Below, piece by piece: positions 20,212 through 20,276 of a DNA stretch of 64,000 nt (within the stretch, counting starts at the first letter, position 1; each line of letters starts with the position of its first letter). The stretch is from Candidatus Thorarchaeota archaeon (lineage in GTDB: Archaea; Asgardarchaeota; Thorarchaeia; Thorarchaeales; Thorarchaeaceae), in NCBI GenBank assembly GCA_003345545.1, contig PRDH01000021.1:1-64000 (forward strand). Reading direction: 5' to 3'. The position numbers and the translations under genes were made by a program. The notes beneath the pieces are model-generated. The model saw only the letters and a list, made by a program, of their open reading frames with translations, had not been told where the DNA came from and did not search any database.

Positions 20212-20276
20212 GCCCGAGGTGATTGCTGAGGTCAAACGAGTACTGGATTCAAGATAGAGGGCTTACCCTCTATCTT
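20212..20276 (+). repeat. Orphan copy of etfA 3' end plus perfect terminator hairpin
   Basis: 41/46 identical to 19506-19551 and encodes the same PEVIAEVKRVLDSR*; hairpin AAGATAGAGGG-CTTA-CCCTCTATCTT. Confidence 0.95.

Follow-up and report, generated by a model that had tools for sequence, protein, structure and literature searches.

Organization of the etfA locus

The window analyzed here is a stretch of 64,000 nucleotides from a Candidatus Thorarchaeota genome, labeled G000, whose relatives are given other G-numbers. All of these genomes are metagenome bins, that of G000 being 93% complete with an estimated contamination of 5.4%. The locus is organized around the etfBA gene pair, encoded on the plus strand. 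The ORF of etfB (17558–18349) shares 73–97% amino acid identity with the etfB of relatives, where it invariably lies beside etfA. The etfA gene (18352–19551), to which an N-terminal ferredoxin domain is fused, matches the Pfam families ETF, ETF_alpha (residues 274–352), and Fer4. On its 5' side, the array described below is preceded by genes for a DPM2-like protein and for a protein of 282 aa that matches no Pfam family. A tblastn search of the G000 genome found no second etfA, and the orphan copies of the gene end are therefore not derived from a paralogue.

Downstream of etfA, the end of the gene and its terminator hairpin (the tail) recur several times. A nucleotide profile (nhmmer) built from the tail-plus-hairpin of eleven copies, all taken from genomes other than G000, detects four copies in the whole 64-kb window, one live and three orphan, all of them on the plus strand. 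The live tail with its weakened hairpin (copy 0, 19474–19574) is found with an E-value of 1.9e-17. It is followed by orfX (19628–20098, plus strand), the first passenger gene, which encodes a 156-aa membrane protein with 39 homologue clusters. The stop of orfX is overlapped by copy 1a (20086–20133, E 8.3e-5 over the whole window), a short tail-plus-hairpin remnant with a 79.5% blastn match to the region of the second orphan of G005; it folds with -14.1 kcal/mol, at a z-score of only -1.6. Next comes copy 1, the orphan tail proper (20212–20276), which holds the last 14 codons of etfA, a stop at 20255–20257, and an 11-bp hairpin predicted by folding at 20251–20276. The profile match of this copy extends over 20206–20285 (E 1.8e-13). 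The second passenger is a Kelch-repeat gene (20473–21618, plus strand; Pfam Kelch families), followed by copy 2 (21595–21678, E 3.5e-12), an older displaced tail and hairpin remnant. Copy 2 reads LEIIEAVKMN*..AER, a tail allele type found in other species, and is 78% identical over 63 nt to the orphan of G020. Behind it lies a further passenger of the family F24 (21736–22350, plus strand), a 204-aa gene without a Pfam hit, for which the gene-family map shows a preceding tail copy in G000, G001, and G005. The conserved far flank begins with a 99-aa gene of the family F9 (24414–24713, minus strand), mapped in 18 genomes. A proposed further copy at 22349–22366 was not detected by the tail-plus-hairpin profile and was rejected.

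Thus, orfX, the Kelch gene, and the later genes are separated from each other by copies of the etfA tail, which can also supply parts of the neighboring genes. Copy 2 provides the final five codons and the stop of the Kelch gene (21603–21618), read in another frame. The same Kelch-to-tail junction recurs on a contig of G011 (C115), where the Kelch stop lies three codons earlier, at the tail start. For annotation, such gene-end copies explain etfA-like fragments of short length as well as stop codons and terminators that are borrowed.

Comparison of the live and orphan tails

The live repeat unit inside copy 0 (19506–19570) and copy 1 (20212–20276) form a 65-nt direct repeat with 85% identity, and both encode PEVIAEVKRVLDSR followed by a stop. 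The Nei-Gojobori method, applied to the 14 sense codons, yields 5.0 synonymous differences over 11.0 synonymous sites and 0.0 non-synonymous differences over 31.0 non-synonymous sites. Under neutrality, the probability that five out of five changes are synonymous is about 0.26^5 = 0.001, or 0.005 if the TTA/CTG difference is taken as one event. The orphan, however, reaches upstream to about position 20170, since 20170–20195 aligns with 19477–19498 of etfA (p = 0.008, 500 shuffles), and this decayed part (20170–20211, plus strand) holds indels and non-synonymous changes. The claim of the sequence-only reading that the two tails differ by synonymous changes only is thus valid for the last 14 codons and fails for the decayed extension.

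The hairpins of both copies also differ, as that reading had noticed. The perfect 11-bp stem of the orphan folds with -17.9 kcal/mol (z -5.3), against -8.7 kcal/mol (z -2.3) for the weaker live stem. The AGATAGAGG..CCTCTATCTT type of hairpin is found after the live etfA in G002, G009, G011, G012, G014, and G018, and after orphans in G000, G001, G002, G004, G005, and G020. The strong hairpin of the orphan is probably the older type of etfA terminator, and probably now ends the etfBA-orfX transcript.

The estimated contamination and the origin of G000 as a metagenome bin would allow for an assembly chimera, in which two strains were merged and one of the tails belongs to each. However, the longest exact match between both tail copies is of 14 nt, judged too short to cause a mis-join in assembly graphs, the broken copies 1a and 2 cannot be strain variants of a working gene, and the same layout is present in many independent assemblies, including a matching orphan in the independently assembled G001. 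For these reasons an assembly artefact is unlikely, and a chimera of two strains is barely credible as the source of the repeat.

Orphan tails and passenger genes in related genomes

Similar orphans with different cargo are present in at least 11 of the 28 genomes of the same genus. They hold 13–56 codons and lie 0.6–1.9 kb behind the live etfA in G001, G007, G011, G015, G017, and G020, as well as in G002, G004, and G005, which have two orphans each. Additional orphans are found on separate contigs of G011, G015, and G024, and the remaining members of the genus show no orphan near etfA. A search of 87 genomes of the class extends the phenomenon to at least four other genera of Thorarchaeia (G049, G059, G074, G075, G085, G088, and G089).

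The genes between the live etfA and the orphan vary from genome to genome. The inserts are single ordinary genes of 0.6–2.7 kb, unrelated to one another, and at about 30 loci the cargo encodes membrane, Kelch, beta-helix, beta-propeller, hemerythrin, or ABM-like proteins, or proteins of no recognized family. The tail alleles of relatives are of equal length and share a conserved core. In G024, the conserved flank (families F9-F10-F20-F23) starts 60 bp past etfA, whereas in the window it starts at 24414. The interval between etfA and F9 is therefore a variable island, spanning from 60 bp to 4.9 kb. The gene of the family F18 lies after the live etfA in G018 and after the orphan in G020 and G002, a position indicating that orphans retain their old neighborhood.

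The aforementioned contig C115 of G011 (locus L037) has no etfA, and holds tail copies at 6415–6561, 8802–8976, and about 10220–10290, with a 630-aa esterase-like gene and a Kelch gene lying between them. A fourth copy is found upstream on the same contig (2042–2188). The presence of tail copies on an etfA-free contig suggests that the island may be long or relocated.

Evidence for import and replacement of the gene end

Across the genus, the comparison of each orphan with its own live tail gives a pS of 0.45–0.83 and a pN/pS of 0.08–0.40, within the range of pairs of live tails (median pN/pS 0.22). Most of this divergence therefore dates from a time when both copies were functional genes. This agrees with the five synonymous and no non-synonymous changes of G000, and upholds the earlier proposal that both tails were working alleles that diverged under purifying selection.

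The relationships of the tails point to the same conclusion, as several orphans are closer to the live tail of another species than to their own. At informative sites, the orphan of G015 shares the state of the sister genome G024 in 30 cases and the live tail of G015 does so in 13, and G005 shows a like trend (28 sites for the orphan and 16 for the live tail). Between the live etfA genes of G015 and G024, divergence rises from 0.083 to 0.261 at nt 1044 (LRT 35), and the orphan of G015 starts at nt 1052 of etfA. A second change-point is found between the live genes of G005 and G011, at nt 1025 (LRT 27). In some sister species, the live tail is thus shown to be the foreign one, with the change-point at the start of the orphan.

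The clearest case of cassette movement involves G017 and G007, whose etfA genes are 78% identical. Their cassettes, in contrast, are 93–98% identical over the last 42 nt of etfA, a GCCCGG-type terminator, a gene for a 470-aa membrane protein, and the first bases of the orphan (3059–4760 of locus L014 in G017, and the equivalent region of L015 in G007, on the reverse strand). Identity drops across the orphan and is gone beyond it, and the crossover in etfA is located at nt 1155. Judged from this identity profile, the cassette is a clear recent transfer between species. Similarly, G011 and G075, members of two different genera, share an ABM-like gene and the orphan tail behind it at 89% identity over 612 nt. 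Cassettes bounded by two tail copies are therefore shown to have moved between species and genera.

If the end of etfA had been duplicated locally in tandem and had then decayed neutrally, a truncated copy would also be left behind the gene, and some other orphan tails of G000 do look this way, such as one on contig C31 with a pS of 0.07 and a pN of 0.22. Such an origin is nevertheless highly improbable for the etfA orphan, given its purely synonymous differences, the low pN/pS of the genus at near-saturated pS, the orphans that are nearer to the live tails of other species, and the lack of relationship among passenger genes. The substitution pattern, the native-tail comparison, the breakpoints, the shared cassettes, and the position of F18 support selected alleles and import instead, so that on this point the sequence-only reading is supported. 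With good confidence, the orphan can be regarded as a 3' end that once served etfA and was later displaced downstream.

Age of the orphan and order of events in G000

The closest relative of G000 is G001, with 91.5% identity over etfBA. Its orphan has the GCT/GTC synonymous variants and the type of hairpin in common with that of G000. The upstream flanks of both orphans show no significant likeness (p = 0.15), so that the case for their orthology consists of the tail, the hairpin, and these synonymous variants. On these grounds the orphan of G001 is probably orthologous to copy 1, and homology with G001 picks up again at position 21672 of the window, right behind copy 2. Most parsimoniously, copy 1 had probably been displaced, and was already an orphan, by the time G000 and G001 split.

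This changes the history that had been proposed from the window, in which the insert was imported recently together with its etfA end. For copy 1, a recent arrival is not supported, given the matching orphan of G001, and a change-point scan between the etfA genes of G000 and G001 found no breakpoint (LRT 3.5). Moreover, the tail that fits the live tail of the closest relative is the live one and not the orphan: among the variable sites, the orphan is the odd one out four times and the live tail once.

The live tail of G000 looks chimeric itself. Its 5' part equals the live tail of G001, while its last 26 nt and its hairpin type equal the orphan of G001, a composition that would fit recombination between tail copies.

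Alternatively, selection or continuing gene conversion from live alleles could be preserving the coding part of the orphan, as might be suggested by the clean 46 nt adjoining a decayed upstream part and by the synonymous variants, which occur in mixed combinations in the live and orphan copies of both G000 and G001. However, the orphan has no usable start codon or open frame, and other orphans contain stop codons or have lost their stop, as in the second orphans of G002 and G005 and in G007. Few neutral hits are expected in 46 nt since the split of G000 and G001, which fits the observed cleanliness, and the five differences between the G000 copies imply that no recent conversion took place between them. 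Taken together, maintenance of this kind is improbable, and the orphan is better read as a displaced former end.

The cassette of orfX is probably of a different age. In G001, G017, and G007, orfX is missing at this position and the 470-aa gene, common to the three genomes and missing in G000, is found instead. Its insertion is specific to G000 among the sampled genomes, and the orfX cassette is therefore probably younger than the displacement of copy 1. The named members of the orfX family come from Thorarchaeota or Promethearchaeota, and the best non-self homologue is 67% identical. None of the 10 orfX loci retrieved from metagenome and genome contigs has orfX directly behind a live etfA, although orfX does occur within the same etfA-to-F9 interval in G004 and in an SMTZ1 contig. 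No donor of the orfX cassette was found among these 10 loci and the homologues. With a live tail that looks chimeric and the 470-aa gene missing, the locus in G000 allows an incomplete reconstruction of its history.

Junction clustering and candidate nucleases

The 5' ends of many orphans cluster. At least eight junctions with different upstream cargo fall 27–42 nt before the AINKDP codons, at about nt 1041–1050 of etfA. This stretch directly follows the GISGAIQH codons, where the Pfam ETF_alpha domain ends. Over the 87 genomes, most orphans start at residues 347–358, and the change-points of the live genes at nt 1044 and 1025 coincide with this cluster. The orphans of G000 itself start later (at about residues 376, 386, and 392), as do several others. 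Homology-facilitated illegitimate recombination would not be expected to produce clustered junctions, and the clustering of orphan ends at one site across genera is likewise not predicted by plain random recombination. A purely random process of this kind was the first model considered, and was downgraded after the clustering was recognized. The clustering hints at a site-directed break, although a self-propagating tail unit inherited with its boundary would cluster alike.

A site-directed break could result from a homing-type process, in which a site-specific endonuclease, either borne by some cassettes or supplied in trans, cleaves etfA directly behind the GISGAIQH motif. The donor tail and its cargo would then be copied in during repair, leaving the old tail stranded, as in the WHO elements of yeast, refining the import model rather than contradicting it. 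Besides the junctions and change-points, this possibility is favored by the cargo moving with a downstream tail copy in G011 and G075, as the WHO model proposes (PMC7282813). A second favorable case is found in G093, from another genus, where a 551-aa ORF with HTH and LAGLIDADG_3 domains (3477–5132 of locus L064, G093:C48, minus strand) lies 50 nt behind the etfA stop. It is flanked by 46-nt direct repeats (3451–3496 and 5186–5231) located in the terminator region, from 25 nt after the stop, and is missing in the sister genome G092. This insertion, however, sits in the terminator and duplicates no coding tail.

Searches for a nuclease at the etfA loci point in the opposite direction. No nuclease or integrase domain is found by Pfam in the cargo of about 30 loci, and the ESM Atlas returned one LRR-like lead, and no nuclease, for two unexplained cargo proteins. 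There is no LAGLIDADG match on the etfA contigs of the genus, and a tblastn search with four proteins of the genus over 422 kb of fetched loci detected no LAGLIDADG remnants. In G000, a single sub-threshold LAGLIDADG match lies on another contig. The four proteins used in that search are encoded by free-standing LAGLIDADG genes (G005, G010, G014, and G016), none of which is located on an etfA contig, and no gene-end duplication is seen around them. Considering also the later starts of the G000 orphans and the alternative of an inherited boundary, a nuclease trigger is possible from the position of the junctions, and the homing-type start is best regarded as a tentative refinement.

A duplicated gene end could also reflect an integrase. 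Integrative elements that target tRNA or other genes leave a duplicated gene end around the insert, with a fairly fixed boundary, and the tails could accordingly be seen as the attL and attR sites of an element targeting the etfA 3' end and bringing a replacement. The arrangement fits, but the inserts are single ordinary genes without an integrase, and the G000 genome shows no match to PF00589 (tyrosine recombinase) or PF01797 (Y1 transposase) and only a sub-threshold one, of 19.5 bits, to PF00239 (serine recombinase). Furthermore, the longest stretch in which the repeats are identical measures 14 nt, and the crossover points vary by event, as illustrated by nt 1155 in G017 and G007. An integrase-driven element is thus very unlikely, and displacement by incoming homologous tails remains the preferred reading.

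Proposed mechanism of tail displacement

In the proposed mechanism, the incoming DNA would consist of an etfA tail, its terminator, and a passenger gene, often with a further tail copy behind the passenger. Joining would occur by homologous repair or recombination with the tail copies as homology arms, either through circles that pop out and pop in or through a double crossover. The etfA gene would be kept intact with a new end, and the old end, together with everything behind it, would be moved outward. Repeated rounds would then produce a stack in which the youngest cassette is nearest to etfA, and recombination between tail copies could delete or swap cassettes. In G000, copy 1 would have been orphaned before the split from G001, and orfX would have arrived afterwards. 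The process could be triggered by spontaneous recombination or by a cut near codon 347.

Homology-based joining through the tail copies is the simplest model, and it explains the cassettes shared by G017 and G007 and by G011 and G075. Points that count against it are the lack of a breakpoint between the etfA genes of G000 and G001, the search for an orfX donor, in which the best relative was 67% identical, and the clustered 5' ends of the orphans across genera. In a broader formulation, which is put forward tentatively, Thorarchaeia might possess a family-wide, integrase-free system of gene capture, where cassettes made up of a passenger gene and a copy of the end of a conserved host gene move between species and genera and are stacked behind essential genes, after a cut at a fixed and highly conserved codon motif by a nuclease not carried by the cassette. 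If true, this would be an archaeal counterpart of the yeast WHO elements turned into a general platform for gene capture.

Similarity to known systems

In the mitochondria of the fungus Allomyces, a mobile endonuclease ORF brings a substitute C-terminal end to atp6 and strands the native one downstream. The locus of G000 differs in the absence of an endonuclease gene at etfA.

The closest described systems are the WHO homing elements, which have the same architecture and 3' replacement together with a nuclease of their own, and the displaced ends of Rhs, CDI, and type VI secretion proteins, which are integrase-free and follow a toxin-immunity logic. WHO elements are found at FBA1 of Torulaspora and Lachancea yeasts (Coughlan et al. 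2020, PMC7282813), where they form clusters behind the housekeeping gene, interspersed with fragments of its 3' end. With every arrival, a new 3' end takes the place of the old one, which is shifted outward, and the host gene shows unusual divergence and phylogenetic discordance in its 3' part; the fragments tend to begin at one position, the downstream fragment acts as a second homology arm, and the elements encode their own endonuclease (PMC7282813). The etfA array is alike in having 3'-end fragments between the inserted genes, downstream and on the same strand, with four copies in G000. Replacement of the 3' end is seen in G015/G024 and G005/G011 and not in G000/G001, and the common start of fragments may have its equivalent in the junctions at nt ~1041–1050, with the orphans of G000 and several others beginning later and with an inherited boundary as another possible source of the pattern. 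Unlike in WHO clusters, the passengers of etfA are membrane, surface, and miscellaneous genes without a nuclease at about 30 loci, and the host is an archaeon instead of a meiotic yeast.

The second system comprises the C-terminal displacement of Rhs and CDI toxins and the displacement of effector-immunity modules of the type VI secretion system in Vibrio cholerae (Kirchberger et al. 2017, PMC5361080). In this case, orphaned 3' regions are strung downstream of the full gene, new modules are added at the gene while older ones are shifted back, and no integrase is involved, with homologous recombination later moving whole arrays between strains (PMC5361080). The etfA orphans are similarly stacked downstream of a full gene without an integrase. 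However, the displaced ends of those systems are differing toxins with matching immunity genes, whose variety is favored, whereas the ends of etfA are functionally equivalent alleles of a metabolic enzyme (identical peptides in G000) and the cargo is unrelated.

Integron arrays also resemble the locus in their ordered single-gene cassettes, with a repeated hairpin-bearing unit in between and the newest cassette next to the insertion point. Nevertheless, no IntI-type recombinase was detected in G000 in the PF00589 search and no attC site at the etfA array, the repeated unit is a host gene's end, and the recombination seems to rely on homology. Stacks of this kind are not described in a paper on Asgard mobile elements.

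On the proposed reading, gene gain in an Asgard archaeon has left an ordered fossil record in this stack, in which every cast-off etfA end would mark one acquisition and preserve the allele then in use. The cassettes bounded by etfA ends cross species and genus lines without a recognizable mobile-element gene. If general, this would provide a testable route for the flow of accessory genes in the archaeal lineage closest to eukaryotes.

Other gene-end duplications in G000

Duplicated gene ends are not restricted to etfA. A genome-wide scan for duplicates, done in G000 only and with crude ORF calls, showed at the nucleotide level that all duplicates of gene tails near their genes are on the same strand. 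At the protein level, and leaving out a run of repeats on contig C81, orphan C-terminal fragments lie downstream on the same strand in 12 cases, upstream on the same strand in five, and on the opposite strand in none. The N-terminal fragments mirror this distribution, with six cases upstream on the same strand.

Further orphan 3' ends of other genes, on the strand of their parent gene and 0.7–4.6 kb downstream, are found on contigs C5 (998–1058), C31 (6474–6534), C47 (10542–10607), C35 (2946–3108 and 47678–47794), C38 (5387–5499), and C59 (6499–6634). Their substitution patterns range from selected-looking (pN/pS about 0.3–0.45) to neutral.

Within the window, a mirror image of the tail duplications is provided by a minus-strand gene (44419–45705) whose N-terminal 36 residues are duplicated at 46627–46734 with 67% identity, about 920 nt upstream of the parent gene and on the same strand. 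Outside of the window, the region of about 68000–81000 on C81 holds around ten copies of a 40–140-nt repeat, mostly 0.4–1.5 kb apart. These copies, which dominated the genome-wide duplicate scan, sit at the 5' ends of neighboring genes.
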